DNA of 64,000 bases from Eledone cirrhosa (taxonomy: Eukaryota), in assembly GCA_964016885.1 (NCBI GenBank), contig OZ024740.1, forward strand, positions 93,806,001-93,870,000. Direction: 5' to 3'. Below, piece by piece: positions 11,923 to 55,170 of this stretch (positions are counted from its first letter, which is position 1; the number at the start of each line of letters is the position of its first letter). Both the position numbers and the translations under genes were made by a program. The notes beneath the pieces are model-generated. The model did no database searches, was not told where the DNA came from, and saw only the letters and a list, made by a program, of their open reading frames with translations.

Positions 11923-11994
<72 letters not shown>

Positions 11995-13204: not shown

Positions 13205-16200
13205 CTTTGTTGTTTCTCTCACTTTTTTCTGGGTTAGAAAATGATTAAAACGAAATGTTTTACTTTATGTGAAGTGTTAAGGTATTAGTTGATTTATTTA
13301 TTATTTAACAACTGCATTTATTTATGTATTTATATATATAATTATTGTCTATTAGCGGTTTCAGCATTTATATTCTTTATCAAATGATTGTGAAATGTAT
13401 TACTGTGGTGTCGCACATTTTAAACATAAGGTACACAAAGAATAATGTTATATACAAAAAAGGTTTAAGAAGTGAAAAGAAAAAAGAAAAAGGAAAAAAA
13501 AGGAAAAAAAAACAATTGTGCATAATGTGGAACGTAAAAAGCCAATGTGGAAGACAAAATAATGTTATTTACAAGCAGATTCATTGAAGTTAAGCAGTTC
13601 AAAATGTGTTAATAACGCAAGAGTACTTAGTTAAACCATGGTTCCGTGAAGGATGCAAATGGTGGACTGTGGTTTGATATGATTTCCCTTTTTAGAGAGT
13701 TAATATGCAGGGGGAAGCAATTCTTGCTGGGTGATATTTAATTTATTTAAGAAAAAGGATTAGGTAGGTTGTGAGGGAAGTAACTCTTGTAAATGTTTGA
13801 TGGTTTGTTGCAGTTTTACATTGGTCCGATTTTTAGGGAATTGAGCAGTTGTTGAAATTCATTAATGACATGTGTTTCCTTATTGGTACGTTAGATGAAA
13901 GTAGCGTTGTCTATGAATTTGTAAAGGGGGAAAATGTTAAAGTGTGGATGTTGGTTGAGAGCACAATTGGCGATATGTTCACTAAATGCGATCTTTCTGT
14001 ATTCATGAATTTTAATTTGTGATTTATGGACGGTCATACGTTGAGGGAGGCTGTTTTTTATCTGCGCTATGTAGTGCTCTTGACAACCTGAGCAGGTCAA
14101 AACATAGATTAGGTTTTCAGATGCACATGTAAAGTTGTGTTTAACTGTGAAACCTTGTCCTTGTTTAAAATGGAATGTTGAACCTTCTATTAGATGTATG
14201 CATATGCGACAGTTGGGCCTTCCGCACTTTGTTACTGTAGAGTTCACTGTGAGGGTTTGTTGGATTGTTGCTTGTGTGAGGATGTTTTTTTTATATCGAT
14301 TTGGGTTGTCTTTTGTTCTTTATGATGTTGTGTGTTTGGAGGATATTGTTCATTCTTGGGTCTCTTTTTAGTAAAGGAATTTTCTGGAGGATGGTGTCGA
14401 ATGCCTCATTGTTGAGGGGGTTGTGTGTGGGGATGTATGTTAGAGTTTTTTGTTGCGCTTCTCTCCTGGGTTTGGGCTGTCTGAGTTCTTGGATGTCTAG
14501 TTTTAGGGCACGTTGGAATCCATTTGTGATTAGGGATGGTGCGTAGTTGCTGCTGATAAGTGTGTTTTTAAGTCTTCTAGTCGTGTGTAGCATGTGTATT
14601 TATCTCAAATTATTGTGCAGTTCCTTCTGGCTAGGTTATAAGCAATTGCCATTTTGGTGTCTCTAGGGTGGCAGGAGTTGAATGGAAGGTACTGTTGGGA
14701 GTCTATGTTTGTGTAGTATATGTCTGTTTCTATTGTCTTGCTTGTTTTCTTGATGTGGATGTCGAGGAAAGGGAGTTGTCCATGGCTGTAGTCCATTGTG
14801 AATTGTAAGTTAGTGTTGAGCCCATTCAGAAGGGTTTTGAACTCAAACAGTCTATCTATACTTTCATGCGAGAGGATGAAGCAGTCGTCCAGATATCTCT
14901 TCCAGTTATTTTCTATGTGTTGGTAGAAGTGGTTGCCGTATTTGTCTAGAACTTTGCGGTAGAGAATGGTTTCCAAATATCCCATGACAAGGTTGGCGTA
15001 TGAGGGGGGCCACATTCGTGCCCATGGCGTTCCCAGATATCTGTCTGTAGTATTTGACATTGAATTCGAAGAAATTGTTTTCCAAGATGAATTTGAGTCC
15101 CTCCAACACAAATTCTTTAGGGAGGCGCTGTGGAAGTTCACTAGGGAAATTTTCCATCCAGAATTGTATTGCCTCTATACCTAGGTTGTGTGGGATATTG
15201 GAATATAAATTGATGACATCAAAGGTTACTAGTAGGGTATGTTCGTTATTGAGTGTTGTTGGGAGGTGGTTGAGCATGACAAGGTCGTACCTTATGAAGC
15301 ATTTGATATGTTTTAGGAAAGGCTTAAGCAGAATATCTAGGAAGTTTGTTAGGCTGTGGGTTTCACATGTGGTGCCTGCTATTATGGGTCTTAATTTAAG
15401 GTCATCAGGAGAGGCTATATTGATGTAAACGTCTGTTGCTTGCTTGCACGCCCTGTCTATTATGTCGCGTTTGTGTGTATTGGGGATACCGTAGAAGAGA
15501 CTGGTTCTGCTTTTGAAATTGGTGATGTAGCTGTATTCCTTGTCTGTAAGGCATTCTTTGTAAATGGTTGTTAGGGATTTTAGGTTTCTCATTATTTTCT
15601 GTTGTGTTTTGGGCCTTTCCATAATATGTTTGGTTTTCTAGAGTTGTGTAATAATCTTTCTCCATAAGGACTACTGCACTCCCTTTATCTGCATCCTTGA
15701 TTGTTAGGGTTGTGTCGTTTTTTAGACTGTTAATACCATTCCATTCTTTTTCGCTTAGGTTTGGTTTTTGTTTATGTCTGTGTAGGTGTTGGTATGGGTA
15801 ATTAGTAATGTGTTCCCAGAATTGATCGAGGAATTTATTCCTGCATTTTGGTTGGGTGTAGTTGCTTCTATTTCTGGCTATTGTCATCCTCATTGTATTT
15901 GTTGTATAGTTGTGCGTTGAGTTTTAGTTTTCTACAGAATTCTGCAATATCTTCCTTCATTTCGGGGTAGTTTGGTTGTTGGGGAGTTGGTGTAAATGTT
16001 AGACCTTTGGAGAGTATGTTGATTTGGTCTGTTATTAATTCTGTGTAGGTTAAATTGACAATTTTTATTGAATTTTGTGACTCCTGTGTGTTTTGTGTTA
16101 TCTTGTAATCCTGTGTCTGTGTGCTGTGTCTAAAAAAATGATTACGGAAGTTGTGATGGCTGTTGAAGTTTGGATGTCTCTTATAGTTTTATTGGCTCCT

Positions 16201-18285
16201 GCTGTTGTTGTAAGATGGTGTGTAGCTGTGGTGGTTGTTGAGTTTAGGTTGTATCGTTTGGTTGTATTGAGCCTTGCTGATGTTGTTGTAGGGTGTGTTG
16301 GTTTGATTAACGTGGTTATAGGTTGTGAAGTTGTGGTGGTTGTTGAAGTTGGGTTGTATCGTGTGTTTGTGTTGAGCACTGCTGTTGTGGTAGGGTATGT
16401 AGACTTGGTGGTAGTTGTAGTTGGGTTGTCTTGTGTGTTCATATTGAGCCCTGTTGTTGCTGATATATGATGTGTAGCTATGGTGGTTGTAGTGGTTAGG
16501 GTGTCTTGTGTGGTTGTATTGTCCCCTGCTGGTGTTGTTGTAGTAGGGTGAGGTTAGTGGGGGAGGGTAGATTAGGGTTTCCTTATAGCTGGTATATGGC
16601 TGTGAGGCCCTGTGTGACATGTGTGGTAGTTGTGTATTTTGGGTTCTATGTTGGAAGTAATGATGGTTGTAGGTTTGTTGTGTGGAGATGTTAGGGTGGT
16701 TGTAAGTGTGTGTGTGTGGGGGGAGGGGTTATGGTTTCTCCTGGTAGGAGAGAAGTTGTAGTGTCTATCTTGTAGATTATGTTTCTCCCTTACTATATTT
16801 GTTGCTTGGGAGTCCATGTGGTAGTTGTGCGGAGGGTGTAGGAGGTAGGGGCGAGGTGATGCCTTACTTTGTTGATATGTGGGGAGGTATTGTTTTTTGT
16901 TGTTGTTGGTTGTTGGGTGTTGTTTGGTTGTTGGTTGAGTTTTCTTGTTATTATGGTTTTAATGAAGGGGTTCTTGGATGTGTGTTCTTTTTGGAAAAAA
17001 ATAGACATGAAGGAACTCAGGCACCCCAAACCCAGGAGTGAACCGCAACAAAAAACTCTACCATACATCTCCACACACAACCCCCTTAACAATGAGGCAT
17101 TCGACACCATCCTCCAGAACATTGCTTTACTAAAAAGAGACCCAAGAATGAACAATATCCTCCAAACACACAACCTCATAAAGAGCAAAAGACAACCCAA
17201 ATCCATAAGAAACATCCTCACACAAGCAACAATCCAACAATCCCTCACAATGAACCCTACAGTGACAAAATGCGGAAGGCCCAACTGTGGCATATGCATA
17301 AATCTAATATAAGGTTCAACATTCCATTTTAAACAAGGACAAGGTTTCACAGTTAAACACAACTTTACATGTGCATCTGAAAACCTTATCTTTGTTTTGA
17401 CCTGCTCAGGTTGTCAAGAGCACTACATAGAACAGACAAAAAACAGCCTCCGTTAACGTATGACCGTCCATAAATCAAAAATTAAAATACATGAATACAG
17501 GAAGATCGCATTTAGTGAACATATCGCCAAATGTGCTCTCAACCAACATCCAAACTTTAACATTTTCCCCATTTAAAATTCATAGACAGCGCTACTTTCA
17601 TCCAACGTACCAATAAGGAAACACATTTCATTAATAAATGTCAACCACTACTCAATGCTCTAAAAATTGGTCTAATCTAAAACTGCAACAAACCATCAAA
17701 CATGTACAAGAGTTACCACTCTCACACCCTACCTAATCCTTTTTCTTAAATAAATTAAATATCACCCAGCAAGAATTGCTTCCCCCTGCATATTAACTCT
17801 TTCAAAAGGGACATCATATCAAACCACAGTCCACCATTCGCCTCCCTCACGGAACATGGTTCAACTAAGCACTCTTGCGATATTAACACATTTTGAACTG
17901 CTTAACTTCAAAGACTGTGCTTGTAAATAACATTATTATTTCTTCCACATTGACTTTTTTACGTTCAACATGATGCACGATTGGTTTTTTCCTTTTTTTT
18001 TCCTTTTTCCTTTTTCTTTTCACTTCTTAAACCTTGTTTGTATATAATATTATTCTTTCTGCACCTTATGTTTAACATGTGCGACACCACACTAATACAT
18101 TTTACTATCATTTGATAATCATATAAATGCTGAAACCGCTAACAGAAAATAATAAAATATATAAATAGATAAATAAATGCCATTATTACATAATAAATAA
18201 ATAAACTAATACATTAACACTTCACACAAAGTAAAACATTTCGCTTTAATCATAACCCAGTAAAAAGAGTTTGCATAAACACAAT
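13205..18285 (-). mobile_element. Near full-length Neptune-like PLE with ~1.3 kb inverted 5' arm
   Basis: The body is on the minus strand (16995 to 13205). 17002-18285 is an inverted copy of ~13205-14500. Confidence 0.9.
13817..16070 (-). pseudogene. Frameshifted PLE polyprotein: RT plus Cys linker plus GIY-YIG endonuclease
   Basis: Motifs: IVNL..LSKGLTFTPTP, IKDADKGSAVV, LRPII, LVTFDVINLYSNIPH, YYRQISGNAMGT, RYLDDCF, LPFLDI, CGRPNCRIC, FTCASENLIYVLTCSGCQEHYI. Confidence 0.92.
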
Positions 18286-19410
18286 GAGAAAGTAATAAAA
18301 AATGGGTCATTATCATCATTTAGTCTTAGATTCATAAAGTTGTGTGCTCCCAGCCTGATACAAACACGTATTATCTCACACTTTTACTGTATTATATTTC
18401 TGTATTTTCATAAATACAGTAATATATATGTATTAAAATACCTTCTAACATAGTTATTATTCTTCCGATATTATATTGTAACCTCTAGTCACAGGTGTGT
18501 AAGATAATCTTCCTGAATTCTAACAGTGAAAATACATTTAACAAACAGGAAATACATGGAAAAGCCAATGTAGATATAGAATATAACGTTATATTGAAAT
18601 TGAAATCATTAATGAAACCAAACACAGTAATATGTTATAAGAATTTGTGTCGGTAGTCTTGCTCCCCAAATCTCCCTGTCACGGTGTGCCAATATATCAT
18701 ATGATGGGTACAACGGGGTCTTGGGAATAGAGATAGTTAATTAAGTCGATTCTTGCAAACTTTACAGCGCATTTCCCTTGAGTAGTCGACGGTGGGCGAG
18801 GCAAATGATATGATACCAGGTGTGGCATTAATTCAGATTCAGTTGCTCGTGAACCTCGAAAAACAAAAAAACAAACGAAATAAAATCCATTGTGATGAGT
18901 AAATGGTGAATGCATAAGAATTGTCATGCAGTGAAGTAATTCTAGTTCCAACACGATTGGAAAGAAAGTATATGTGAGTGATTTATTCATAAAGTAATTG
19001 AAGAGAAATATTGAGGAACATAATATGTGAAAGAAATGATTCACATCGGATGAAAGGCCACGGCCTGTTCCATATACAGTTATTTCCACAGCAACCCTAA
19101 ATTTCTATCGGTTTAAGTTACACAGATAGCGAAAAGATGTGATTAATTCTCAAACAAGTGTCCTCCTCATTAACAGCCACCTATCATTTGGCGTTAAATA
19201 ATAAGCGCCAAGTGGGGTCATAAATAGCTCCATAATAGAATCAAAATGACATTATTCTCATGAATATATTAAAGAAATATTCGCTTCCAGGCAAGTTAAA
19301 AAGGAAGAGTACTTCCAATAAGAAACCAAGTAAATGATGGACGAATTAAACGATGATTAATACGTTCAAAGAAGACACATAAAATAATATATTTGCGCGG
19401 ATTATGTAGA

Positions 19411-20160
19411 TCTCACTCGATATGTAAATTAGTCTGCTCAGCCGTTAATATGCATAAGGAAAGTATATACTTTCAGACGTTCAATCATCTGGCAGGAAGT
19501 TATACGGTGCTGACGATAGCTAATAAGCTTGAAACTAGTACATCGTTCCTTTGTCAGTGTTGAATAAAAGGGCAACGATGGTTGCTAAACAATGTACGGC
19601 TTAATTCGTGATGTTTGTTTACAAACAAACCGAGCATTACAATAAAAACTCGGTAAATCCATACGCACATATATGTATGTGTGCATGTATGTATATACAT
19701 ACATACTACTGTACGTCTGTATAGATATATTTATGTACGTTTACATGTTTATATTTAAGTAATGGCCGTACTAAGAGTGACAAATGAAATTTCGTTTAAT
19801 TGTTTTCCATTATCGTTTTTGGTGCGCCCGGCCGCTTATCTCACTCGATATGCAAATTAGGCTGATCAGCCGTTAATATGGATGAGGAAAGTATATACTT
19901 TCAGACGTTCCATCATCTGGCAGGAAGGTATGCGGTGCTGAGGATAGCTAATAAACTTGAAACTAGTACATCGTTCCTTTGTCAGTGTTGAACAAAAGGG
20001 CAAAGATGGTCGGTAAATACTGTACGGCTTAATTCGCGATGTTTGTTTACAAACAAACCGAGCATTACAATAAAAGCTCGGTAAGTCCATACGTATATAT
20101 ATGTATGTGTGCATGTATGTATATACATACATACTACTGTACGTCTGTATATATATATGT
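19411..20160 (+). repeat. HHR-containing tandem repeat (retrozyme-like), array 1, ~1.75 units, period 428 nt
   Basis: HHRs at 19505-19545 and 19933-19973. First copy: CGGTG-CTGACGA-TAGCT aata AGCTT-GAAA-CTAG-TA-CATCG. Confidence 0.9.
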
Positions 20161-20167
20161 ATCTACG

Positions 20168-20267
20168 TTGGAGATGCAGGAGATGGCAGCGATAATGAGG
20201 GACAGAGACCGATGGAGAGAACTCGTCCATAGATCTTCGGAATGTTACCCGCCTTAGAGAGCCATAG

Positions 20268-20270
<3 letters not shown>
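20168..20270 (+). mobile_element. Short LINE 3'-end fragment (RTE-like)
   Basis: LEMQEMAAIMRDRDRWRELV resembles the C-terminal DRxxWRxxV motif of RTE ORFs. Confidence 0.5.
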
Positions 20271-20417: not shown

Positions 20418-20921
20418 CTTAAAACCAAAACTGAATAGTAACCAATGCTATTACTAACTTTTACTTATTCCTAATTAAACTATTTTTCACTGGGAACAAT
20501 TTGTCAGCATTTTCTTTTTCTTTTACCAATATATATATATGTATACGCATATATACACACATACGCATATATATACACACGTACATATACATACATACAC
20601 ATACATAACTATACACACACACATACACACATATACATACTCATGTGCATATACACTTGTACGCGCGCATATACTCTTAGCCACACGTATAGGTACATAT
20701 ATACAAATGTAGGTGTATATATATATATAAAAAAATATATAAATACATTCACACGCATATACATGAGAAAAAATACGTACAACCACATACACACATATAT
20801 ATATATATATATAAAATAAAGACTTATATATAAAACAAATATATATATACATACATACACACATAGGCATATATACACATACATACGCATACACCTACAT
20901 ATATATATATATATATATATA

Positions 20922-22364
20922 TTTCGTTTCTGAATTTGTTTAGCAAGATTATTTATCTGAAATCGTGTGTTGAAACCGATATTGTTATACTTTGGGAGTG
21001 TCATGTTGCCAATAAGAAACACACGCACCAATTGCTTTCACTTCAATTTATTATATATTTATAAATTTATAAATTTACAAATCTACAAGCTTATAAATTT
21101 CTGGTTAGTTGGTTGGTTCCACAACCAGATAGTTGTTTATATATAGTCATAGTCCTTTCGTCACACACTCTGTGACCTCTTCAGTGACTGGGGATTCCTT
21201 TCTTTGTTTCTGTGCCTTTCCTTTCTTATATCCTACGCCATTTTGTTTCTGTGTGTCTGTTGTGTACTCAGTTTGCGCATGCGCCACATCCGGGTGTCTG
21301 TGTGTGTTTGTGTTCATTTATCTATTTGTTTAATTATTTATTTATTGTTGGTTGGTTGTTCGTTCTATGTGTGTGTGTGTTTTCATTTTGTCCTTAATTG
21401 TAAGTTGTTTGTTCTATGTGTGTGTGTGTTTTCATTTTGTCCTGTGTGTGTTTTCATTTTGTCCTTAATTGTAAGTTCTGATGTTGCTGTTCCACTCATA
21501 TTTTCTATTTAATTTTGGTTGTAAGTCTTTTATGCTTACTGCCTCCGTAATTTGCCTAAACATTGCATCTTTTCTGTGTGTGGATTCTATTTTTATTTCT
21601 ATGTTCTCTAATCTACCCATGTGTTCTATCTTAGCATGTTGGTAGAGCACAGATGATTCTTTATTATCTTGAAGGTCTCGCCAATGTTCATTTATTCGTT
21701 CCCCTATACTACGAGCTGTCTCACCTATGTACACTATATTTTTGTTTCTACATTGTCCTTCAGTACATCTTATGCTATACACTACATTTCTAGTTTTACA
21801 GTTAATATGGGAGCTTATTTTACAGATTATACATTTCTTATCTATACATGAGGGTCTTTGGAACAGGTATGTCTTGCTAATAAGTGTTTTTACGGAGGTA
21901 CCTGGTCTTTCTACTATCTTAATATTGAGTTTATGTTTATTTAGGGCCCTTCTAAATGTGTAGGCTAGTTCGCCTCTAGGGGTTGTATTGATGAACATTA
22001 CACTCTGGTATTTATTGCTATCATACCATAAGTTTATTCTATTGGCCTTGTTCCTAGTTCTTTCTATTCTATTCCAAAATTTGCTCCTATACAAGGGGCA
22101 GGTCCTATTTATGTCATTATTTACCATTTTTTCCCATTTGGTTCTGGCTCCTCTATACACTCTGATTCTATCTCTCTGATTGTAGCCAGAGAACTGCATA
22201 CGGTGGATGAAGTGTTGTATGTGTCTCTCTAGTTCTTCGGGGTTGCACATGCGGGACACATTTCTCATCACCCGTACCAAATCCGCAATCAATATGTTGA
22301 TTTTGGTATGGATTTTGGTATGATTTTGGTATGCATTATTGGCAACATGACCCTCCCAAAGTAT

Positions 22365-22371
<7 letters not shown>
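20922..22371 (-). mobile_element. 5'-truncated Nematis-like PLE with short inverted 5' end (22336-22371); HHR at 21145-21189
   Basis: Same pLTR and HHR as at 12k. Terminus cccaaagtataacaata followed by (TA)n. Confidence 0.92.
21465..22300 (-). CDS. PLE RT thumb plus GIY-YIG endonuclease (open, 5'-truncated)
   Basis: Motifs: RMQFSGY, CPLYRS, TTPRGEL, KIVERPG, CIDKKCIIC, NVVYSIRC..YIGETARSIGERINEH, RQITEA, LNRKYEW. Confidence 0.9.
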
Positions 22372-22404
<33 letters not shown>

Positions 22405-22511
22405 GTGGAAGGGGTATTCAAAGGGTTGGAAACGACAACTTTAAATAAAAATATAAAAATATAAATGTGTATAACTGATATAGAGTACTCACAAGTTTAC
22501 TGGAGTAAATA

Positions 22512-26905: not shown

Positions 26906-28157
<1,252 letters not shown>

Positions 28158-28162
28158 TATAT

Positions 28163-28797
28163 ATTTCGTTTCTGAATTTGTTTAGCAAGATTCTATATCT
28201 GAAATCGTGTGTTGAAACCGATATTGTTATACTTTAGGAGGGTCATGATGCCAATAAGGACCACACGCACCAGTTGTTTTCACTTCAATTTATTATAATA
28301 ATAAATTTATAAATTTATGAATAAATAATATTTATAAATTAATAAATTTAGGAATTTATAAATTTGTGGTTGGTTGGTTGGTTGGTTCCACAACCAGATA
28401 GTTGTTTAAATATTGTCAAAGTTCTTTCGTCACACATTACGTGACCTCTTCAGTGACTGGGGATTATTTTCTTTGTTTTTGTGCCTCTCCCTTGTTCTGT
28501 CCTAGGCCATTTTGACAAATTGGCGTAGGACAGAACAAAGGAGAGGCACAAACAGAAAGAAAAGAATCCCCAGTCACTGAAGAGGTCACATAATGTGTGA
28601 CGAAAGAACTTTGACAATATATAAACAACTATCTGCTTGTGGAGCCAACCAACCAACCAGAAATTTATGAATTCCTAAATTTATTAATTTATAAATATTA
28701 TTTATTTATACATTTTTAAATTTATTATTATAATAAATTGAAGTGAAAGCAGCTGGTGCGTGTGTTTCTTATTAGCAACATGACCCTCCCAAAATAT

Positions 28798-28804
<7 letters not shown>
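28163..28804. mobile_element. Foldback of Nematis-like pLTRs with HHRs at 28415-28457 (-) and 28573-28615 (+)
   Basis: GTCA-CTGAAGA-G-GTCACA taatg TGTGAC-GAAA-GAAC-TT-TGAC. Centre near 28515; tail on the left arm only. Confidence 0.9.
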
Positions 28805-28838
<34 letters not shown>

Positions 28839-31098: not shown

Positions 31099-31626
31099 CC
31101 AGCTGGTGTTGTTACGGAATCAAACAATCTTTGCCCAGACAGAGTATATATAATAGAAAAAAAGAGGAAGTTTCATTATGGATGAAAAATATTTATAGGG
31201 CGTAGCACAGATACTCAATAAATGTTTATATGTAAACGAATCTTACTAGATTTTTTTCTCTTATATATATATATATATATATCAACGTGCCCAGACACGC
31301 AGATGTATTGCTCTTAGTATGACAGTGTGGTTTTAGCTCAAGTAGGATAACTAGTATACTACAGAGCCGTTATAAGTTTAGGAACAATCAAAGAGTGCTT
31401 AGAAATACATTGTTTTATTAGCTAACAGTGTTTCATCCATACACTTTGGGAGGAATCACAGGAGCCTAAATAAGAGTAGTTGCATGCTTCATCATGCTGC
31501 GTCCACAGAACAAGCTTACACGACCAGCAGCGGCGTCCCAAAGCCAGCACTATATAGAAAAAGACACAATACATGACGCACATAATGTCATAAATGTAAT
31601 AAAAAATTACATCAAAAATTACATCA

Positions 31627-33245
<1,619 letters not shown>

Positions 33246-34714: not shown

Positions 34715-35908
<1,194 letters not shown>

Positions 35909-36501: not shown

Positions 36502-36599
36502 TATATATATAAAAGAGAAAACACAGGTAAGCATTAAGAGAAGGATTTAATCCAGGTATTTACGACCGTTTCATTGTATCTAAATTTATACAATTTGAC

Positions 36600-38186
36600 A
36601 TTAACGATCATTACTCATCTATATCCCCCAAAATCTTGGATAAAGCATTAGCATTCGCCAAACCCAATTCTGACATAACAGACGACGAGATAAAAATCAT
36701 ATTAGCTGCTAGGAAAACAATAATTAAATTTGAAAACGCCTATTGGGAACGTAAGGATAGATTAAATAACTTTGACATCACGATGGGGGCTAACGACTCG
36801 GCTCAAGTCACACACTTAGTAGGTATTTACATAGCCCACAGTTTTCAAAGCGAGTTTAGTGACCTTCACGGTGGAATCTACAGAGACGACGCCCTTCTCC
36901 TAGTTAAGAACCTAAATAACCAGAGCATAGAAAGACTCCGTAAGAATATATGAAAGACTCTCGGAAAACTAGACCTTAGCATAACGTACGAGTATAGCAC
37001 TAAAACAGTTAACTTTCTAGGTGTGTCGCTTAACCTAAATACGGGACTTATAAGACCTTTTCACAAGATTAATGAAAACTTAGCATACATCAACTGTAAC
37101 TCAAACCACCCACTATCAATAATTAAATCCATTCCACGAAACATATCCCTTAGGACCTCCCGCCTCTCATCTAACCGGCAAATCTTCGAAGAACATGCAG
37201 AATACTACAATACCGCATTAGACAAGGTAGGCCACTTATTTAGAGTAGAATATATAGATGAAAGCCTCTGTGAAGCACACACGAACACGCATAACACAAA
37301 CTCCAGAAACACACGCATACACACATTTACGCATAGAACTGCAAAGTATACGGCAAATAGAAGTACAACATCGAAATCAAACAAGTCACTCAGTAGAAAA
37401 TATATTTGGTATAACCCCATATTTAACACCTCTATTAGTACTAACCTAACCTCTACTTTCTTTAGAATAATAAATAGGCACCTTCCAGATTCACATAAAT
37501 ACAGCAAAATCCTTAACACTAAATCTATTAGACTATCCTACTCCACGGCACCAAATATAGAAGCACACATTAAGATGCTTAACGCTAAAAAGATACATAA
37601 CAACACCAAAACACAAATTTACAATAACAATACAATTACCACCGAACACAACAGAATATCTAATACACAACCACCCGCTAATAGGCAAACAAAACGTAAC
37701 ACACTTGTTCAGGCATCGCAGCCCACAAATAATGCCAAAGTTGCCCATAACAAGAAATGCAACTGCCACCTACCTGAAACCTGTCCATTACAAAATGAAT
37801 GTATGCAGTCTAACCTGATTTACCATTGCACAGTGGAATCAGACAACCAGAAATGGTATAACATCGGAGCGACTGGGAATACCTTTAAAGCTCGTTGGTA
37901 TACACACCGTTACGCAATGAAACATTCCCAGCACCGTTATGTAACTACACATGCAAACAAGACCTGGCAACTGAGGGAAAGTAACCATCAATACACCCTG
38001 AAGTGGAAAAAATTATCAAACGCGCCCCCATATCGGAGTGGTATCAAAAGCTGTCGATTATGCGACCTTGAGCTGTTCCACATCTTAAGTTCGGAGAATA
38101 GGTTACTCAACAATAAAATTGAGAGATCAATTTATTGTAACCATAGACTCAAAGAGAAATTTTCGCACTACAAATCGAACACTTAA
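36600..38186 (+). pseudogene. Naiad-like RT plus GIY-YIG ORF with one in-frame TGA at 36951-36953
   Basis: Motifs: FDITMGANDSAQV..LVG, GIYRDDAL, VNFLGVSLNL, SNHP, IWYNP, CNCHLPETCPL, LIYHC..NIGATGNTFKARW..H, CRLCDLE, CNH. Confidence 0.92.
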
Positions 38187-38457
38187 CCTCTTGTACCAAC
38201 TGACAAACTGCATATATTAGACTTTATACCCTTTATATCTAGACGCTTTAATTACCCACAAAACCAATACATATATCCCCCCTTCTCCCTCATTCCTCTT
38301 CTATTTCTTCGTTTTCTTCCTTCCTTCCCCCTTCTTGGCTATCTTTTCTTTTCTTCCTTCTCACCCCCTTCTTTGCTTTTATTTTTGTCATTATTATCTT
38401 TATTTTTATTTTTTATATATATATGTGTGTATATATATATATATATATGTGTGTATA

Positions 38458-41500: not shown

Positions 41501-41688
41501 TATATAAATTATTCCGTTCATGATACATTCATGATCTTTAACTGAAGTGTAATTAATGAATATTTTACATACATGTACATTTGAGAAAATCTATTACATT
41601 ATGAGTGAAGATGTATATCCAAAAGTGGTAAATGGGTAGAAACTCGGGATACACACGCACACAAACATACATATATATATATAAATAT

Positions 41689-41770
<82 letters not shown>

Positions 41771-41774
<4 letters not shown>

Positions 41775-43051
41775 GAATGAAACCAAATTTTATTTCTCAC
41801 TCTTACCAGGGCACTTACTTAATTGAAGTATGTATGTATACAGACGTACAGTAGTATGTATATATATATATACATACATGCACACATATATATATGCACG
41901 TATCGGTTTACCGAACATTTATTATAATGCTTGGTTTGTTTGTTTGTAAACAAACAAACACCCCGAATTAAGCCGTACAGTGTTTAGGCAACCACGTCAC
42001 CTTTTTGTTCAACATTGACACAGGAACGATGTACTAGTTTCAAGCTTATTAGCTATCGTCAGCATCGTATACATTCATGCCAGATGGTTGAACGTGTGAA
42101 AGAATATACTTTCCCTATGCATATTAACGGCTGATCAGCCTAATTTGCATATCGAACGAGTTCAGTCGGCCAGACACATCGAAAACGATAAATGGAATAG
42201 AATGAAACGAAATTTCATTTCTCACTCTTATCTCGGCACTTACTTAAATGTAAGTATGTATGTATGTATGTATGTATACGTACATAATATATGTATACAG
42301 ACGTACATTAGTATATATATATATACATACATGCACACATATATTTATGCACTAGTACAACTAGTACATCGTTCCTGTGTCAGTGTTGAACAAAAAGGTG
42401 ACGTCGTTGTCTAAACACTGTACGGCGTAATTCGGGCTCTTTGTTTCTTTACAAACAAACAAACCGACCATTATAATAAATGTTCGGTAAACCGATACGT
42501 GCATATATATATGTGTGCATGTATGTAAATATATACATGCTACTGTACGTCTGTATACATATATGTATGTACGTATACATACATACTTACATTTAAGTAA
42601 GTGCTCTACTAAGAGTGAGAAATGAAATTTCGTTTCATTTTATTCCATTTATCGTTTTCGGTGTGCCCGGCCGACTGAACTCACTCGATATGCAAATTAG
42701 GCTGCTCAGCCGTTAATTTGCATAAGGAAAGTATATACTTTCAGACGTTCAACCATCTGGCAGGAAGGTATACGATGCTGACGATAGCTAATATGCTTGA
42801 AACTAGTACATCGTTCCTGTGTCAGTGTTGAACAAAAAGGTGACGTGGATGCCTAAACACTGTACGGCGTAATTCGGGTTCTTTGTTTGTTTATAAACAA
42901 ACAAACCGAGCATTATAATAAATGTTCGGTAAACCGATACGTGTATATATATATATATATAGTTGTGTGCATGCATGTATATATATATATATATATATAC
43001 AACTGTACGTCTGTATACATATATGTATGTACGTATACACACATACATACT

Positions 43052-43055
<4 letters not shown>
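41771..43055. repeat. Retrozyme-like array 4: ~1.3 units (-) joined at 42350 to ~1.6 units (+), period 442 nt
   Basis: Intact HHR at 42027-42067 (-), half HHR at 42360-42371 (+), HHR at 42773-42813 (+). Confidence 0.92.
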
Positions 43056-43134
<79 letters not shown>

Positions 43135-43328
43135 AAAGTATGTGTTCTATATGTAATTAATACATACAGGAATGCACTTATAGTCCGTATGCCAGTGTGG
43201 TTCAATAGCAAGTTAATAAGTTAACAAGCCAGAACATATAAAATCAAGGGATTGTAAACACGGAAAATATTTTAAAAAATAATAATAAATAATTAAATTC
43301 CAAAACATTCACTGTACTTACTATATGC

Positions 43329-43474: not shown

Positions 43475-43755
43475 CCTCAGAATGAATCAGTAATGGGTAG
43501 GGACTCGTGCAAAGGCGAAAGCACGTTGGACAGAACAATCTAATGCTACTAAAAATAGCAGTTATACGAACGACCGAAGGTGTCTCTACCGGTGGGGAGA
43601 ATAATAATAATAGTAACAAAAACTATGTGTCCTATATTTAATTAATACATACAGGTCGTTCGTATAGGTGCTTTCTTTAGTAGCAATAGATTGACTTGTC
43701 CAACGTGCTTTCGCCTTTGAACGCGTTCCTAACCATAACTGATTATTTCTGAGGT
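43475..43755. repeat. Inverted repeat, 43475-43575 vs 43654-43755
   Basis: aaaggcgaaagcacgttggaca and its reverse complement. 43615-43655 also repeats 43134-43170. Confidence 0.75.
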
Positions 43756-45130: not shown

Positions 45131-45319
45131 ATACAATATATTAATAAATGGAAACTATATTTATAAAACTATATTTATTTCATTATACATATTTCAAGGA
45201 CACCAAATCAAATTATGGTGCGCTTTCATCAGATAACATTGCTTTGGTGTCCTTGAAATATGTAAAATGAAATAAATATGGTTTTATAAATATAGTTTCC
45301 ATTTATTAATATATTGTAT
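45131..45319. repeat. Foldback with ~76 bp arms; shorter relative at 26716-26765
   Basis: Shared taataaatggaaactatat terminus and actcca..aaa..tgt tail. Confidence 0.85.
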
Positions 45320-46399: not shown

Positions 46400-49300
46400 T
46401 GTAGTGATAATATATCGTCACATTAGAGATGAACAGCATACGTGTAGGTTTGCTCAATGAGTATGAATTATATTCCGGAGAAAATGTAGAAAAGATGAAT
46501 ATAAAATTAATGTGTTTTATAATGGAATTTAATAGGTATTGACATATGTTTCTGTAACATACCTATGTATCGTTGCTTGCGTAATCATATAATATTAGCA
46601 CGTAATCGATAGCAAATGTATAATCAGTTGTCACTTCTTCAGAGATAATGGATACATTGGAAAAAATCTGAAAAACCAAAGTAAGAAAGAAAGAGGAGAG
46701 GGGAAAGTATATGACAGATGGCAATTCAATTTGCTGGTAAATAAGTGTATAGAAGGTTTTTAATGAGAATGCAATGTGTATATGGCTTATTTTATCTAAA
46801 TAAGAATTTTTGGGAGTGCCGATTTTAATTTATATTTGACCAGTTGAACAATGGACAGAGCTGGTGGCTTGGTGTGGTAGTATTAATACAGATATAAGGT
46901 GTCTAGTAAGGAAGAGAGATTTTCAATGCTACTTTATAACAACAATGCTGGTAGCCTGTTGGTATATGCTTTAGGGAATTGAATTGAGAAATCTCATTTT
47001 ATATATAGCATTTTATATTAAATGATAAAGAATAGAGTTGATGATAGAATTAAAACTAATAGAGATAATGTTAATATGTATTTTGGCAATCAAACGAGGA
47101 TGGAGACGCGTTCAATCCTGGTAGCGTTTTTAATATGAAAATGTAGATTTCAAACGATGGTTACAGTCTAACGATCGCTCTATTCTATTATTATAGGATT
47201 TTATAATACAAAACATTTCCATATAACACAATCTACAACATTTCTATATTTGGAGACGCAGGGGTTTAAGTTATTTTATTCCATTTTAGGTTAAATTGTT
47301 GGTTATTTTCGCGCAGCTGCCAAGCCCTGTCCGCGAGTGTTGTTACATAATGCTGGTTTTCATGTTTTATCGAGTAGCGATGTATATAAAGGTGAGATAT
47401 GAAGGAGGTAGCAGTAGACCCCACATAGTACCACTTCTGGCTACCCGATTCGAGAGTACATGTGTATATGATGTTGCGTTCAAGACATTGGTTATTCAAC
47501 GGACACATTCCTAGTTGGAAAAGTTACAGTTATAATTATGCGCAGTTGTAATACCATGGATGGGTTGATGGGGTTGTTTAGGCATGTCGGGATGTTGTTT
47601 GTTCTTTAGTAAAGTTTTGTTATGTGTTGGAAGGCATTTGTACAACTGTTTTGCGTTAAGCTTTTTTATATGTTGTTCAATATTAGGGGCAGTTGAATAT
47701 GAAAGTCGAATAGTGTTAGGGTTTAAGATGTTATTATATTTATGTGATGCTGGAAAATGTTTTTTAACTAATCGAAAGAATTGTGAGGCTAGATTGGTTT
47801 TAATAGAGTAGTTAAAGACCGGGATGTACCATATATACTTTTTACATCGCCTTCTGTTTGGTGGTGGTGTGCGATTATTGGTGTCTATTGCGGTAGTGTA
47901 TGTATGGTTGTGATTGTCTGCTATTTCTACCTCTATGAGATTTATTTTGAGTGTTTTGGTGATCGTCGACTATATACTCTATATTATCTAGGTGTCCAGA
48001 TTTCCTATGTGCATCATCATAATATTCGGCATGTTCATCGAAGGTTTACAGGTTGGACGACAGGCGGGAGATTCTAAGGGAAATATTTCTAGGGATGGAT
48101 TTAATTGTAGAGGGTGGATTATTTTTAGAACCTGTATTTACATATTTAAGGTTCTCATTTAGTTTATGGAACGGTTTAATCGTTTCTGTATTGAGATTCA
48201 AAGTAACATCGAGGAAATTAACGTCTTTGTGTTTATATTCAAACGTAATACTTTATCCTAGTTCCTTAAAAAGCTTCCTAATATTTTTACGCATCCTTTC
48301 TAAATTCTGGTTATTCATATGCTTAACTAACAGGAGCGCATCATCACGGTAGAGTCCACCGTGGAGATCCTTAAAGTAGTCCTTGTAGTCTGTGGGCGAG
48401 ATAAATTCACACAAGATTAGTTACTTCCGACGAATCATTGGAACCCATAGTTATATGAAGACTAGAGGGTCTATCTTTGCGTACCCAGTAGCTATCATCA
48501 AATCTAACAATAATTTTCCTCGCTTCTATAATAATACTAATTTCATCGTCCGTAAGGTCGGAGTTAGCCTTAGCGAACGAAAGAGCTTCATACAGAGTAT
48601 CAGGTGAGATTGAGGAATAATACTCATCAATATCTAACTGAATAAATTTTGATTTCTTCTTATCAGTAAGGCTATTAAACTATCTTATTGCCTCATGGGT
48701 TTTACCCCATACTTTAATATTTACTTTATCCTTAACCTGTCTAATATGTATTTGCTAATTTTACCTATATCAGATGTATAAGGGACATATAAGTCTAATG
48801 TTAGGGTCAGTATCAAAGTTCATGGTCCTTCAAGTTGAGAATGGAGTAGCTGGTAAGTCTAACACCGACTTTACGGATGATGAAATTAGTATTATTATAG
48901 AAGCCAGGAAAACTATTGTTAGATTTGATGATAGCTATTGGGTACGCAAATATAGACCCTGTTAATTTCGATATAACTATGGGTTCCAATGATTCGGCGG
49001 AAGTAACTGATCTTGTGGGAATTGATATCGCCCACGCGACTACAAGGACAATTTAAGGATCTCCATGGTGGACTCCACCATGATGATGCGCTCTATTAGT
49101 TAAGCATATGAATAACCAGAATTTATAAAGGATGCGTAAACATATTAGGAAGCTTTTTAAGGAACTAGGATTAAGTATTACGTTTGAATATAACCTCAAA
49201 GAGGTTGATTTCCTCGATGTTACTTTGAATTTCAATACAGAAACGATTAAACCTTTCCATAAACTAAATGAGAACCTTAAATATGTAAATACAGGTTCTA

Positions 49301-50975
49301 ACCATCGACTCCCTACAATTAAATCCATCCCTAGAAATATTTCCCTTAGAGTCTCCCGCCTGTCGTCCAACCTGCAAACCTTCAATGAACATGCCGAATA
49401 GTATGATGATGCACTTAGGAAGGCTGGACACCTAGATAATATAGAGTATATAGTCGACTATCGCCAATACACTCAAAATAAATCTCATAGAGGTAGAAAT
49501 AGCAGAGACTCACAACCATACATACACTACCGCTATAGACACACTAGTAGTCGCACACCACCAAACAGAAGGCGATGTAAAGAGTATATATGGTACAACA
49601 TGTCTATAACAACTATATTAAAACACATCTACCCTCACAATTCTTTCGATTAGTTAAAAAACATTTTCCAGCATCACATGAATATAATAAAATCTTAAAC
49701 CCTAACACTATTCGACTTTCATATTCAGCCGCCACTAATATTGTACAACATATAAAAAAGCTTAACGCCAAAAGATTTTATAAATGCCTTCCATCACATA
49801 ACAAAACATCACAAAAAAACAAACAACATCTCGACATGCCTAAGCAAGCTCATCAACCAATCCATGGTAGTACAACTGCGCATAATTATAACTGTAACAT
49901 TTCCAACTAGGAATGTGTCCGTTGAATAACCATTGTCTTGATCGCAGCATCATATACAAATGTACTATCGAATCGGGTAGCCAGAAATGGTACAATGTGG
50001 TGTCTACTGCGACCTCCTTCAAATCTCGCCTTTATAGACATCGCTATTCGATAAAACATGAAAACCAGCGTTATGTAACAACACTCGCGGACAGGGCTTG
50101 GCAGCGGCGCGAAAATAACCAACACTTTAACCTAAAATGGTATAAAATAGCTAAAACCCTGGCGTATCTCCAAGGACAGACATTTTCTAGATTGTGTAAT
50201 ATGGTAAAATATTTTGTATTATGAAATAAGAAAATATGTTATTAAATAACAGAATAGAGCGATCGTTATACTGTAACCATAGCTTGAAATCTACATTTTC
50301 ATATTACAAACGCTACCAGGATTGAACGCGTCTTCATCCCCATTTGATTGTCAAAATACATATTAACATTATCTCTATTAGTTTTAATCCTATCAACACC
50401 TCTATTCTTTATCATTTAATATAAAATGCTATAGATAAAATGAGATTTCTCAATTCAATTCCCTAAAGCATATACCAACAGGCTGCCAGCATTATTGTTA
50501 TACAGTAGGAGTGAAACTCTCTTCCTTACTTGACACCTTATATCTGTATTAATACTACCACACCAAGCCTCCAGCCCTGTCCAATGTTCAACTGGTCAAA
50601 TATAAATTAAAATCAGCACTCCCAAAAATTCTTATTTAGATAAAATAAGCCATATACACATTGTGTTCTCATTAAAAACCTTCTATACACTTGTTTACCA
50701 GCAAATTGAATTGCCATCTGTCATATACATTCCCCTCTCCTCTTCCTTTCTTGCAACTAATATAAATACTTTGATTTTTCTGATTTTTTCCAATTCATCC
50801 AATATCTCTGAAGAAGTGACAACTGATTATACATTTGCTATCGATTGCGTGCTAATATTATATGATTACGCAAGCAGCGATACATAGGTATTCCGTCTGT
50901 TACAGAGACATATGTCAATACCTAATAAATTCCTTTATAAAGGCACTTTCATTTTATATTCATCTTTTCTTCATC
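46400..50975. mobile_element. Naiad-like PLE foldback with ~2.1 kb arms (46488-48570 minus; 48855-50975 plus)
   Basis: Both arms encode decayed RT-GIY-YIG: FIQLDIDEYY, ITMGSNDSAE, YRDDAL, VDFLDVTLN, MCPLNN.C, YYVGSTATSF. HHRs at 46537-46647 (-) and 50803-50920 (+). Confidence 0.92.
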
Positions 50976-51035
50976 TGAATATATGTATATATATATATGT
51001 GTGTGTATGTGTGTGTATCACATATATATATATAC

Positions 51036-51952
51036 AGGAGGGCCCTGTAGAAACAGTAGACAGCTTCTGCTACCTAGGTGACCGAATTAGCAACGGAGGT
51101 GGGTGCTCAGAAAGTACAATAACTAGGGTAAGAACGGGATGGAAGAAGTTTAGGGAACTACTACCACTGCTAGCTGCAAAAGGCTTCTCCCTCAGAATGA
51201 AAGGCAGACTGTATGATGCTTTTATCCGAACAGCGATGTTGCATGGTAGTGAGACCTGGGCGCTGAAGGTGGAAGACTTACGTAGATTAGAGAGAAACGA
51301 AGCCTGCATGCTCCGATGGATGTGTAACAGTAATATACGTGAACGACAAAGCATAAAGGAATTGAGAGAGAGACTGAGCATAAGAGGAATCAAATGCTGC
51401 GTGCAGGAGAGGCGGTTACGCTGGTATGGACATGTGAATGCGTATGAAGGATGACAGCTGCATAAAAAGGTGCAGAGCACTAGAAGTTGATGGAAACCGC
51501 GGAGTGGGGAGACCCAAGATGACTTGGGATGAGGTGATAAAAGCCGACCTTACCCAACTACACCTCTCAAAGTCAATGACACACGACCGTGACTTCTGGC
51601 GTCACGCAGTAATACAGGGTACCCGACCTCCCATGGGTACATGCTGAAGCATATAATCAATGTGCCCCCCCCCCCACCACCGCAAGGTGGTCGTGGAGGT
51701 GCCACGGCAAAAAAGCACCCAGCCCACACTGTAAAGTGGACGTGTAGGCGCCACGAAAAAGCACCCAGCACTCACTGTAAATGAGGTTGGTGTTAGGAAG
51801 GGCATCCAGCTGTAGAAATCAAGCCAGATCAGTTCCTGTATGAGCAAGGCATGGTCAGCCGACCAGACACTGCCCACAACAGGACAACCCGTCTAACCCA
51901 TGCTAGCGTGGAAGAACGGACGTAAAACGGTGATGATGATGATGATGATGAT
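51036..51952 (+). mobile_element. 5'-truncated RTE LINE with 3' UTR and (GAT)n tail
   Basis: Motifs: VDSFCYLGD..GWKKFREL..MLHGSETW..MLRWMC..RRLRWYGHV..GRPKMTW. The UTR reads aggaagggcatccagctgtagaaa..aacccatgctagcgtggaa, then (GAT)n. Confidence 0.93.
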
Positions 51953-51964: not shown

Positions 51965-54900
51965 TTAAGGATGATATTTTTAGTTATGTATATTTTAAAC
52001 TGTAAACACGGAAGGTCAGTAATGTATTACTACCTTATTACCAGTAAGATAAATAGCTCAATGTAAGAACATCGGCTGTTCTACAGAGCAATTATATAGA
52101 ATTAACAAAAATCAAAGCTGTGTTCAAAACATTTATTCACTTACAATTGTTTCATCCAAACCTAGACTTGTGTCTTCGGAGCATTTTTTAATGCTTGTAC
52201 ATTTAATTGACCTCGTATCCAACGCAAGAGACATGCATATGCATATATATATATATATATATTAATGCACAGTGGAGTGGTATATATTATACTATACTAT
52301 ATTTGTATAGCAATTCAAATTTAAAATCAAATTAAAATACATGCGGCATGTAACACAGATAATGCAAGAGAATAGTCCGACAATCAGATCTAGTAGATAG
52401 TGTATGCGTTAATCATACATAGAGCCTGCACGTGTGTCTCATTTATTGTAAGAGTATTGTGTGGCAAGGTATTACATGCAATACAAGAACTTTAAGCTTG
52501 TAAGCAAGAGTACTATGGTGGTTGTAGTGGGAGGGTATGTTTTGTATAGATAAAATAAGTATGTGCGCAGAAAAAGAAAAAGAAAGTTATAGTTTTCACA
52601 TCCACCACAATTTTCACATCCACATAAAGGAATTTATAGTTTTAACATCCATCACATATGTTACAATAATTCGTATTGAATGTTTGATGTAGTAAATGAT
52701 TGTAACGTATTGAGACTAAGTGTTATTTAATCCATATTTATAGAATAGGTTCTTTCTGCTGCGAGAAATTACACGGTTTATTATCCGGAAGTTGGTATGC
52801 TATTAAGGGGAGTTAATGCGTAAGATAGGGAGATAACTAATTGATCCCCATAACCAAATCCATTGTTCTAACATACATTATATTGTGCCTCAATTGAGTC
52901 CCTTATATAAAAGATTATATATATATATATTTAATTTTACATACACTCTACTCTCTCATAATATATTAAAGGTATCTATAGGAAGTTAATAACTCCTTAT
53001 TATATAGGGCTATATTTGAATTTCCAACACAAAGTGCTATATATTTATATCAAATTCACTTTAAATACCGTCTGCGTTCAAAACATATCGAAGGTCGAAT
53101 TAGATTGTTGTCTATATAACTTTTGGTAAGCTATGAGGCACCGTACGGCTGTTTGCATGATAACATTAGATACGTCTTTTGGGTAAACAAATACATCCCC
53201 CATATACAATGCCAATAATATATCCATTAAGTTATACATGCATATATAATTCATATATAATTCATTGTACCACACTACATATATGTTAGTCCGATCCCTT
53301 ATGTTAATAAATTAATCCTATATATATCTAATGTTATTACTCAATACATTTACTTACAAATGCATATACAATTCATTGTTGTATCTAGTATTTAAAGTTT
53401 ATATAAACTCTATTATATTTCAATCCCTATATAATTATAAGTAATTAAAAGTAATTATATTAACAGTTGGTGTTTATGGGATATTTCTAGGGTATAAAGT
53501 TATAGATAGATAGAAAGATTTGTTTCGAGGAAAGGGTGGATTAGAGAGGGTGGTGTAGTGGTAGAAGGCAAGCCCTTGAGGTGCGGTGTTACAAGTTGCG
53601 ATGAGTTCAAATCTGACATTGTTATATATTAGGTTTAAAGCTTTGGAAGGAGTGTCGTAAGCGGTGCTGGCACGACGCAAACACTTCCGATTTGTTATTA
53701 AGGAGGTTAAGGTTCGAAAAGATTATAGTATGGGTCTCTAGTAGACAGAGGTTACATAATTTATTAGGTGGTTTTTACGATGCCGCCTTACCCATCACTT
53801 CCCATTGAAGTGTATACGATTTATTCCTAGTATTCAGATAGTGTATGTAGCTAGATAGTGAGGTGGAGTTGGCTAGACTGAGTTTTTTTAAAGAATGGAG
53901 ATATGAATTGTATCTCTTTTTGAAGCAGTCGAAGTAGAGCCTATATAGGTTTCAGAAGAGTTGCTAGTTCTGACCGTCCATGAGTAGATGATGTCTTTGG
54001 TTAAGCAGTGTTTACCTAACGGGCAGGGTCTATTAGATCTACAGTTACATTTATGTTGGATGTTAAACTGTCGGTCATTATGTTGTGTAGTAGTCCGGTT
54101 GCTAGGTATTGCATTATGGATATGAAGATTGTCGCTCCTAATGCTATTGATATCATTAGTGTTATTACTATTATTGATATTAATAGTTATTACGTTGTTT
54201 TGAAAGTTTACCCCCTTCTGTGTTTTAGTTTGTTGGAAGTAATTATTCATCTTTCTTTTATTGCTACTAGCTATGTGGTATGCTATGTTAGGCGTGGTAG
54301 AGTAGGAGATTTTAATGGTGTTTTTATTTATAAGACTATGGCACTTGTGGCCAGATGGGATGTTTTTATTCAGGATTGAGAAGAAAGCCTTAGGTAGGTT
54401 GGTAGAGACGTTTAGATTGAAGGGGGGGGGTTGACAAATGTATTAGTTCTTCTTCTATTTTTGTTTTTATATTTGTTGAAGTGTTTCCGTTTATAGTATT
54501 TTGGTGTCCTCTCTGGTGCGAGTTACGTTTGATGCTACCCTTCGTATTAGTGTGTGTGTGGTTATTACTCTTATTACTATTTTTCCTCATGGACATATTG
54601 TTAGAAATAATGTTGTAACTATGTGTTTTTATAGGTAGGAACTCAATCTCATTATTATGGCCTGATCTAGCTAATGCCTGATTATAGTATTGTGAATTTT
54701 TGCTGAATATGGTTTCGTCATCAGATAGATTAGAGATTCTATTGGATATTCCTTTAGTGATAGAGTTTAATATTGATCTAGGTTGGTTAGACTTGGTATC
54801 TACATAAATTAGTTTTTCGTTAGGTTTATATATATTTTAGAGTCTAGGTAAAGGGTAGCATCCAGGAAGTTAACGTTGTTAATGTTTTTGTCTATGGTGA

Positions 54901-55074
54901 TACTTAGGTTATAGATTTTGAAAGTTTTATGTAATAGTTTCCTAGTTCTTTGCGTTGGATAGGAGGTCAATTATATGTACAAGCATTAAAACATGCTCCG
55001 AAGACCCCAACCCTAGGTTTGGATGAAACAATTGTAAGTGAATAAATGTTTTGAACGTAGCTTTGATGTTTGTG

Positions 55075-55081
<7 letters not shown>
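51965..55081 (-). mobile_element. 5'-truncated Naiad-like PLE with inverted 5' pLTR (54964-55081); HHRs at 52138-52183 (-) and 54994-55040 (+)
   Basis: 53680-54960 is a decayed ORF: CNCRSNRPCPLGKHCLTKDIIYS..TYIGST, CNLCLLE. HHR: TGCT-CCGAAGA..GAAA-CAATTG-TA-AGTG. Confidence 0.88.

Positions 55082-55170
<89 letters not shown>

Follow-up and report, generated by a model that had tools for sequence, protein, structure and literature searches.

A probable non-LTR retrozyme in Eledone cirrhosa with structural constraint on its predicted RNA fold

The 442-nt unit at 42367-42808 (plus strand) of the window, the 64,000-nt stretch of the Eledone cirrhosa genome analysed here, raises the questions of which kind of element it represents and whether selection has acted on an RNA made from it. 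It had been described from its letters alone (the sequence-only reading) as a retrozyme-like monomer that is self-complementary throughout. The unit corresponds to one monomer from cleavage site to cleavage site: it starts directly 3' of one GTA and stops at the next, AACTA preceding both GTAs. The four full monomers measure 416-453 nt. The end of the unit is part of a predicted ribozyme.

42772-42814, plus strand: type I hammerhead, predicted to cut after the GTA at 42808
Helix I: ACGATG/CATCGT (six pairs), followed by the core CTGACGA (42778-42784); GAAA at 42799-42802
Helix II: AGC/GCT with U.U at its base
Helix III: one pair with a palindromic CTAG loop, ACTAGT at 42802-42807
Full motif, with an arrow at the cut: ACGATG-CTGACGA-TAGC-loop-GCTT-GAAA-CTAG-TA↓CATCGT

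The repeat is present as four arrays in the 64 kb, with 1.3-3.4 units per arm.

19409-20168, plus strand: array 1, about 1.8 units, consecutive intact-core hammerheads at 19510 and 19938
31625-33098, plus strand: array 2, about 3.4 units with three hammerheads, all of them damaged; 3' end at (TA)n
34872-35908: array 3, two arms joined head to head (minus 34872-35441, plus 35441-35908), each with its 3' end at (TA)n
41773-43055: array 4 as a whole, two arms head to head
41773-42352, minus strand: minus arm of array 4, about 1.35 units, hammerhead core at 42062, 3' end at (TA)n 41667-41771
42353-42366: head-to-head inversion junction of array 4, upstream hammerhead reduced to ACTAGTA plus the cleavage site
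42809-43055, plus strand: second, partial plus unit of array 4, 3' end at (TA)n up to 43131

When both strands of the window were scanned by pattern, type I hammerheads came up at 19510, 19938, 42778 and, on the minus strand, 42062; all four lie within the repeat and have the same polarity relative to it. Three further candidates are unrelated to the repeat. Nine full-length hammerhead motifs of the repeat were counted, one at every full-length unit boundary; four pass the strict scan, three have a damaged catalytic core, and two combine an intact core with damaged helices. Two consecutive complete hammerheads, by which Li et al. define an active array, occur in one array of four (array 1, 19510 and 19938); they are lacking in array 4, where the upstream motif is truncated by the inversion junction. 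The scan found no hammerhead in the antisense polarity of the repeat. Other ribozyme classes were not detected by Rfam, which is poorly sensitive here: at the gathering threshold it gave no match in the whole window and missed the ribozyme. A permissive Rfam search (E<=10) over 41600-43200 yielded 110 matches, mostly miRNA models on the TA tract and far below gathering; they were discarded as noise, and none of them is a ribozyme. The repeat is non-coding, with no ORF of at least 120 aa in arrays 3 and 4 except microsatellite read-through, and with arrays 1 and 2 touched only by low-complexity frames. It has no tRNA head, and its GC content outside the internal tract described below is 39% (135/343), below 45%.

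From these sequence features and the modelled fold, we consider the unit to be, with a probability of about 0.72, the monomer of a metazoan non-LTR retrozyme, a non-coding retroelement with proposed cleavage, circle formation and Penelope-type mobilisation. Metazoan retrozymes of coral, mussel and axolotl are likewise short tandem repeats of low GC content with one type I hammerhead per unit, a highly self-paired fold in which the ribozyme is free to form, and Penelope-like elements in the same genomes (Cervera and de la Pena 2020, PMC7229834). The helix III corresponds to that of the axolotl HHR_Amex1 and the U.U at the base of helix II to HHR_Amex2; amphibian hammerheads with such a helix III are reported to cleave well only as dimers (PMC7229834). 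The monomer is longer here (416-453 nt versus about 170-400 nt), and an internal TA/TG/CA stem and inverted arrays at (TA)n set it apart from the elements as described there.

Circular folding of the unit gave a branched structure of -134.9 kcal/mol, and linear and circular folding led to the same structure. In the family majority sequence 23 helices are predicted, most with a pairing probability (P) >0.85; AATGAAA, the inner tract and one 3-pair helix are near 0.5. About 67% of the bases are paired (144 pairs in 428 nt). Hammerhead helices I and II have P 0.88 and 0.96 in the circle, so that the ribozyme is predicted free to form. Along the unit, the following elements were predicted.

42367-42391, plus strand: closing stem, 5' strand (CATCGT, CCT, TGTCAG, GTTGAAC)
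42397-42411, plus strand: GGTGAC/GTTGTC hairpin, family form GGCAAC/GTTGCY with P 0.98
42420-42427, plus strand: 5' arm GTACGGC(T/G) of a long-range helix, partner 42602-42609, family P 0.98
42440-42459, plus strand: TTTGTTT/AAACAAA hairpin, four more bases per arm in array 4 than in arrays 1-3
42464-42487, plus strand: CCGAGCATT/AATGTTCGG hairpin
42495-42583, plus strand: alternating purine-pyrimidine (TA/TG/CA) tract forming a long stem, 75-115 nt in the eight copies that span it
42613-42686, plus strand: GAGTGAG/CTCACTC domain enclosing the AATGAAA/TTTCATT and TCGGT/GCCGA hairpins, the least certain part of the fold
42690-42723, plus strand: ATGCAAATTA-GGCT/AGCC-TAATTTGCAT hairpin, starting with the octamer ATGCAAAT
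42727-42742, plus strand: GAAAGT-atat-ACTTTC hairpin, P 0.97
42747-42777, plus strand: closing stem, 3' strand (GTTCAAC, CTGGCA, AGG, ACGATG)

The closing stem, an interrupted helix of about 25 bp that extends hammerhead helix I, is the largest element and was absent from the sequence-only reading; in the model it brings both monomer ends together beside the ribozyme core. The helices named in that reading do exist, but a census over 15 pieces of the four arrays showed them to be mostly features of the family, several being degenerate in the unit to which they had been assigned. GGCAAC-gatg-GTTGCC is exact in one piece and GGCAAC....GTTGC[C/T] present in five. The G-U-kept variant proposed for array 4, GGTGAC...GTTGCC, is exact in one piece, the minus arm, whereas the unit has GGTGAC-gtc-GTTGTC (42397-42411) with three G-U pairs. 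The hairpin CCGAGCATT-ataata-AATGTTCGG is exact in two pieces; the unit carries one mismatch in it (42464-42487), and one of its pairs occurs in three states by array, G-U, A-U and G-C. Conversely, ATGCA..GGCTG-ct-CAGCC..TGCAT is exact in this unit only (42690-42723), but its inner helix is predicted as GGCU-gcuc-AGCC because a 2-nt loop cannot close. The hairpin AAAGTATATACTTT was recovered exactly in five pieces, including the unit (42728-42741), and GTTTGT/ACAAAC in seven, though not in the unit. For the long-range pair, GTACGGCT was found in seven pieces and AGCCGTAC in two, array 1 having GGCCGTAC; the partner at 42602-42609 is degenerate in array 4, as had been implied, and intact in copies of arrays 1-3. 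GAGTGAG occurs in nine pieces and CTCACTC in four; both are in the unit, but their pairing probability there is 0.01, against 0.86 for six of these pairs in the family majority sequence. The claim that length variation falls mostly in the tract was half right: among the four full monomers the tract varies by 30 nt (85-115 nt) and the remainder by 28 nt (325-353 nt). By eye, two array-wide indels appear compatible with the fold: in array 4 both arms of the GTTTGT hairpin are four bases longer, and array 2 has lost 6 nt but retains a shorter hairpin.

Retrozymes are reported to be highly paired as a rule (PMC7229834, PMC4918200), and with the class known and such a fold expected of it, the fold observation alone is ordinary. 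Plant LTR retrozymes also have a branched, circle-like fold with about 70% of bases paired; their hammerhead is of type III, blocked in the fold and located in LTRs, in contrast to the tandem, unblocked type I hammerhead here (PMC4918200).

Against dinucleotide-shuffled controls, a comparison that the sequence-only reading had proposed, the circular unit folded better than all shuffles (z -8.19, 0/100 as good), and the same was found with 3- and 4-let shuffles (z -7.32 and -5.88, 0/100 each) and for the linear unit (z -6.28, 0/100). The whole-unit z-score alone proves little, because 8 of 38 other 442-nt windows, a rough background set with 14 shuffles each, reach z <= -6 via microsatellites or DNA inverted repeats. 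Since the tract supplies much of the whole-unit score and such values recur in the background, the tract-free z-score is the meaningful one; it was -4.63 (0/50 shuffles), and z -4.11 was obtained when only the sequence outside the tract was shuffled. The remaining three full monomers gave z -2.5, -4.4 and -6.4 as a whole and -1.2, -3.6 and -2.7 without the tract, the monomer of array 1 (-1.2) being near chance. The family majority sequence scored better than any single copy (z -9.3 whole, -5.5 without the tract). Two long DNA inverted repeats in the window, at 43475-43754 (101-nt arms, 85% identity) and 45131-45319 (81-nt arms, 96%), have background folding z-scores of -16 and -19.

The background windows bring in an explanation at the DNA level, in which the self-complementarity is historical, arising from microsatellite self-pairing, inverted-repeat correction or a MITE- or Helitron-like element, and selection on RNA plays no part. 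It agrees with the 8 of 38 windows, with energies that show no strand asymmetry and with the lack of covariation reported below. We nevertheless regard it as highly improbable: the signal persists without the tract, only 1 of the 28 background windows without a purine-pyrimidine run of at least 20 falls below z -4, and a complete hammerhead lies at the end of the closing stem.

Covariation, the other check proposed in the sequence-only reading, did not rise above shuffles among the copies in the window, a test with little power because there are four lineages and most differences are decay. In a MAFFT alignment of nine natural stretches, with some partial pieces omitted and the GGTGAC hairpin of array 4 misaligned, 90.4% of 749 alignment cells pair, and none of 94 pairs changed on both sides relative to the commonest pair. 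The covariation score was 0.056, with 428 of 500 shuffles as high, and the RNAalifold covariation term was a penalty (+4.3). RNAalifold results depended on the settings: the default circular mode lost the closing stem (-43.8) and RIBOSUM settings recovered the full fold.

The substitutions themselves were more informative. Outside the tract, identity between pieces averages 88.5% within arrays (14 pairs) and 83.7% between arrays (67 pairs); the within-array values range from 83 to 94%, with no near-identical pair. Arrays 1-4 have 9, 9, 4 and 13 unanimous diagnostic variants, respectively, and the 13 of array 4 are common to units across both inverted arms. Each pass carries 9-29 private changes (4-9% of sites). 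As a sequence pattern, this fits one founder template per array that would subsequently have decayed. If selection acted on a mobile RNA, array-wide variants should spare the fold and private variants should not. Each set of substitutions was therefore introduced into the family majority circle without its tract, and the resulting shift in minimum free energy was scored against substitutions of the same types placed at random among sites with the same base, with the catalytic core excluded and indels ignored. The strict array-wide set (35 changes, of which some count for two arrays) summed to a ddG of -4.0 versus 45.7 +/- 8.6 kcal/mol in the null (8, 0, 5 and 1 of 250 null sets as good for arrays 1-4). 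For the 22 array-wide changes at which the other three arrays agree, the sum was +3.1 versus 29.1 +/- 7.4 kcal/mol (p 2e-5; 8, 0, 37 and 8 of 120 null sets as good by array), and for the 27 outside the ribozyme and closing stem -0.9 versus 35.7 +/- 7.6 kcal/mol. Private substitutions of nine passes matched the random expectation (162.6 versus 176.8 +/- 15.9, p 0.18), and hence the null is calibrated. Among 91 confident pairs, pairing was kept by 8 of 11 array-wide and 31 of 118 private changes (p 0.003); two of the eight kept changes are supplied by one gap in the GGTGAC hairpin that was shifted by hand in three array 4 rows with the pairing in view. Before this shift and under a looser definition, a plain count of array-wide changes, 22 of 688 paired versus 21 of 389 unpaired sites, was not significant (p 0.10), and 11 of these 22 at paired sites broke a pair. 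A leave-one-out version of the energy test (7.8 versus 64.7 +/- 9.8) was set aside and replaced, as errors in the reference can appear "reverted".

Since array-wide changes spare the fold and private ones do not, selection acted on the mobile lineage and not on the genomic copies. These results support that the fold was constrained while the element was mobile, that the genomic copies decay, and that the constraint extends beyond the hammerhead to the rest of the unit. The sequence-only reading's proposal that selection acts on a branched RNA fold is thereby supported, by this comparison rather than by the tests it had named. Correction at the DNA level should act on private changes too, yet these are random. 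Structural constraint on an animal satellite hammerhead is already known from the Dolichopoda pDo500 satellite, likewise an animal repeat with a hammerhead and of about 500 nt, in which stems are more conserved than loops (PMC2837043). There the constraint is reported for the hammerhead region, whereas here it reaches the rest of the unit; for metazoan retrozymes PMC7229834 gives minimum-energy folds, and in our case selection on the body was tested. No selection test on a retrozyme body was found in the literature searched. The split between array-wide (founder) and private (post-insertion) changes provides a calibrated test of such constraint that is applicable genome-wide and would show which helices are important for stability or for recognition by the reverse transcriptase.

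The antisense strand proved as conserved as the sense strand (p 1e-4; difference p 0.38), so that RNA polarity rests on the hammerhead and not on energy, which separates neither sense from antisense nor circle from linear monomer. A wobble asymmetry of 4:0 versus 31:25 was not significant (p 0.13). A-to-I editing as a source of G-U pairs found no support, with 3 A>G versus 7 T>C among the 35 strict array-wide changes.

Hammerhead viroids, which likewise have a branched fold with about 70% of bases paired, carry ribozymes in both polarities, replicate autonomously from RNA to RNA and are not known to have a DNA form. The repeat differs from them in its sense-only ribozyme and its genomic DNA arrays, and the terms "circle" and "viroid-like" of the sequence-only reading hold as analogies only, given the same linear and circular fold, the equal antisense scores and the ribozyme in one polarity. 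A viroid-like replicon, copied RNA-to-RNA by a host polymerase, with founders filtered during RNA replication and arrays as occasional DNA fossils, would agree with a whole-body structural constraint on both strands and with the paired fraction of about 67%; moreover, for mussel circles unmatched by database copies, RNA-RNA replication was raised as one option (PMC7229834). We judge it most improbable, as the hammerhead is present in one polarity, Watson-Crick stems alone confer antisense stability, RNA replication is not needed to explain the data, selection among source copies in the genome being sufficient, and genomic DNA arrays exist. A related picture, in which the monomer would be a viroid-like circle that evolves as RNA between insertions by RNA-to-RNA copying, each array being the dated fossil of one founder molecule and the whole 440-nt body selected, appears very unlikely as well.

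The array ends bear on how the preferred retrozyme might move. Five of the six 3' ends directly abut (TA)n, and the sixth meets a 100-nt foreign piece and then (AT)n; in comparison, 1.5% of the bases outside such tracts have one within 6 nt. Four of the six fall within or beside the tract of the element itself, where (TA)n could have arisen by slippage, and two lie outside it. No (TA)n adjoins arrays 1 and 2 at their 5' ends. The six 3' ends and the 5' ends of the arrays fall at different internal positions, and the fixed termini of a MITE- or Helitron-type DNA element are lacking, a further point against an origin at the DNA level. The junction of array 4 (42350-42367) contains a 9-nt ACTAGTACA duplication. 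A 12-mer direct duplication stands ahead of array 2 (31602-31628), at its 5' junction, and the foreign stretch of about 100 nt (20169-20270) that separates array 1 from (AT)n resembles, by eye, a LINE 3' end.

Penelope-type remnants are present in the window, and a second hammerhead family (CTGAAGA, helix II of 6-7 pairs, GAAA), unrelated to the repeat, can be compared with it.

11920-13152: second family, hammerhead cores at 12254 (minus) and 12933 (plus)
20846-21590: second family, core at 21184 (minus)
28065-28821: second family, cores at 28453 (minus) and 28577 (plus)
21465-22496, minus strand: end of a GIY-YIG-type ORF, with the second family in the 3' UTR behind it

The nearest Atlas clusters of this ORF end carry HTH_animal and GIY-YIG domains (score 0.96-0.97). 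All five 3' ends of the second family are at (TA)n, with two end positions about 60 nt apart, and head-to-head pairs occur at 12594 and 28514; it thus shows the same end signature as the repeat arrays, (TA)n 3' ends and head-to-head junctions. Inverted 5'-truncated copies and a (TA)n bias have been described for Penelope-like elements (PMC8557442), and one of them has been shown to start reverse transcription internally at AT-rich targets (PMC11167929). As described in these two sources, Penelope-like elements share with the repeat partial tandems, targets that are (TA)n or AT-rich, 3' ends at internal positions, a hammerhead motif and, at the 5' end, an inverted copy with 5' truncation; the repeat differs in lacking an ORF, in an extended helix I instead of a minimal hammerhead, and in the structure of the whole unit. 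By analogy with these elements, we infer as the best explanation that the repeat was mobilised by a Penelope-type enzyme, and an insertion signature found beside a Penelope-type control bears on what mobilises animal retrozymes in general.

Vertebrate retrozymes, which are non-autonomous Penelope derivatives, similarly consist of tandem type I units, few per array, with Penelope-type elements alongside, and the unit length here falls within their range of 51-972 bp (Li, Clavereau, Pollet, bioRxiv 10.64898/2026.07.22.740005). Those of Xenopus match Penelope terminal repeats, whereas no such homology was found inside the window: the tract-masked monomer had no match with E <0.28 elsewhere in the window and no similarity to any Penelope terminus there. 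Among the groups named for the 35 genomes of that study there is no cephalopod, and no report of a cephalopod retrozyme was found in the literature searched, although supplementary species lists may include some.

For the retrozyme reading we propose the following course, of which transcription, dimer cleavage, circle ligation and rolling reverse transcription by a Penelope-type protein are taken from known retrozymes (PMC7229834). Tandem arrays would be transcribed, and neighbouring hammerheads would pair via the palindromic ACUAGU of helix III and cut out monomers. The closing stem would hold the two ends together, allowing a host ligase to close the circle. A Penelope-type reverse transcriptase/GIY-YIG endonuclease could then prime at nicked (TA)n DNA, with reverse transcription starting inside the RNA and going round more than once, which would yield arrays of 1.3-3.4 units, in some cases accompanied by a second arm in inverted orientation. 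New arrays would be founded only by variants with an RNA still able to cleave, fold, persist and be recognised, and this would be the filter seen in the data; after insertion each copy would decay neutrally. That 8 of 9 predicted Xenopus dimers showed no in vitro cleavage (bioRxiv 10.64898/2026.07.22.740005) counts against this course.

Alternatively, the repeat may derive from a Penelope terminal repeat, carry a hammerhead and move as linear RNA, either monomers or multimers, circles being absent or a by-product and the fold being selected for ribozyme folding and reverse transcriptase binding. The identical linear and circular folds agree with this, as does the behaviour of an anole Penelope-like element, whose ribozyme mutants insert in vitro and which mainly uses unprocessed RNA as substrate (PMC11167929). 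The matches between Xenopus retrozymes and Penelope terminal repeats also agree with it (bioRxiv 10.64898/2026.07.22.740005), and a multimeric transcript would also yield arrays of more than one unit. The diagnostic variants common to the units of an array, even across inverted arms (13 in array 4), and the similar private loads with no near-identical pair are instead expected from repeated passes over one template, and the closing stem joins the ends at the cut site. On balance the linear route seems unlikely.

The window as a whole is AT-rich, with many (TA)n tracts and retroelement remnants. Larger Penelope-type remnants lie at 13222-18267, 36512-38414 and 46484-50974, two of them in an inverted arrangement and one lying between (TA)n tracts. 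The ORF at 36954-38186 has 30% identity to a 717-aa protein in which RT and GIY-YIG-like motifs were read by eye. Pfam returned nothing on 10 retroelement ORF fragments or on three homologues, and a PDB search with one homologue was empty. The two Penelope-type ORFs compared do not align and hence belong to different families. A LINE fragment at 51032-51451 has molluscan named relatives, the closest named being Octopus bimaculoides (60% identity).

Hammerhead-like motifs with a palindromic helix III were also noted at 583 (minus) and 45232 (minus); the former has one core mismatch, and its repeat recurs near 1466-1677, 52017-52246 and 54950-55085. The octamer ATGCAAAT is found in six repeat copies (42690-42697, 19850, 32324, 35112, 35514 and 42143), about 110 nt 5' of the cleavage site and within a stem. 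Newt satellite 2 has an snRNA-type promoter with an octamer, and by this analogy the octamer here is, as a lead, a candidate promoter element.
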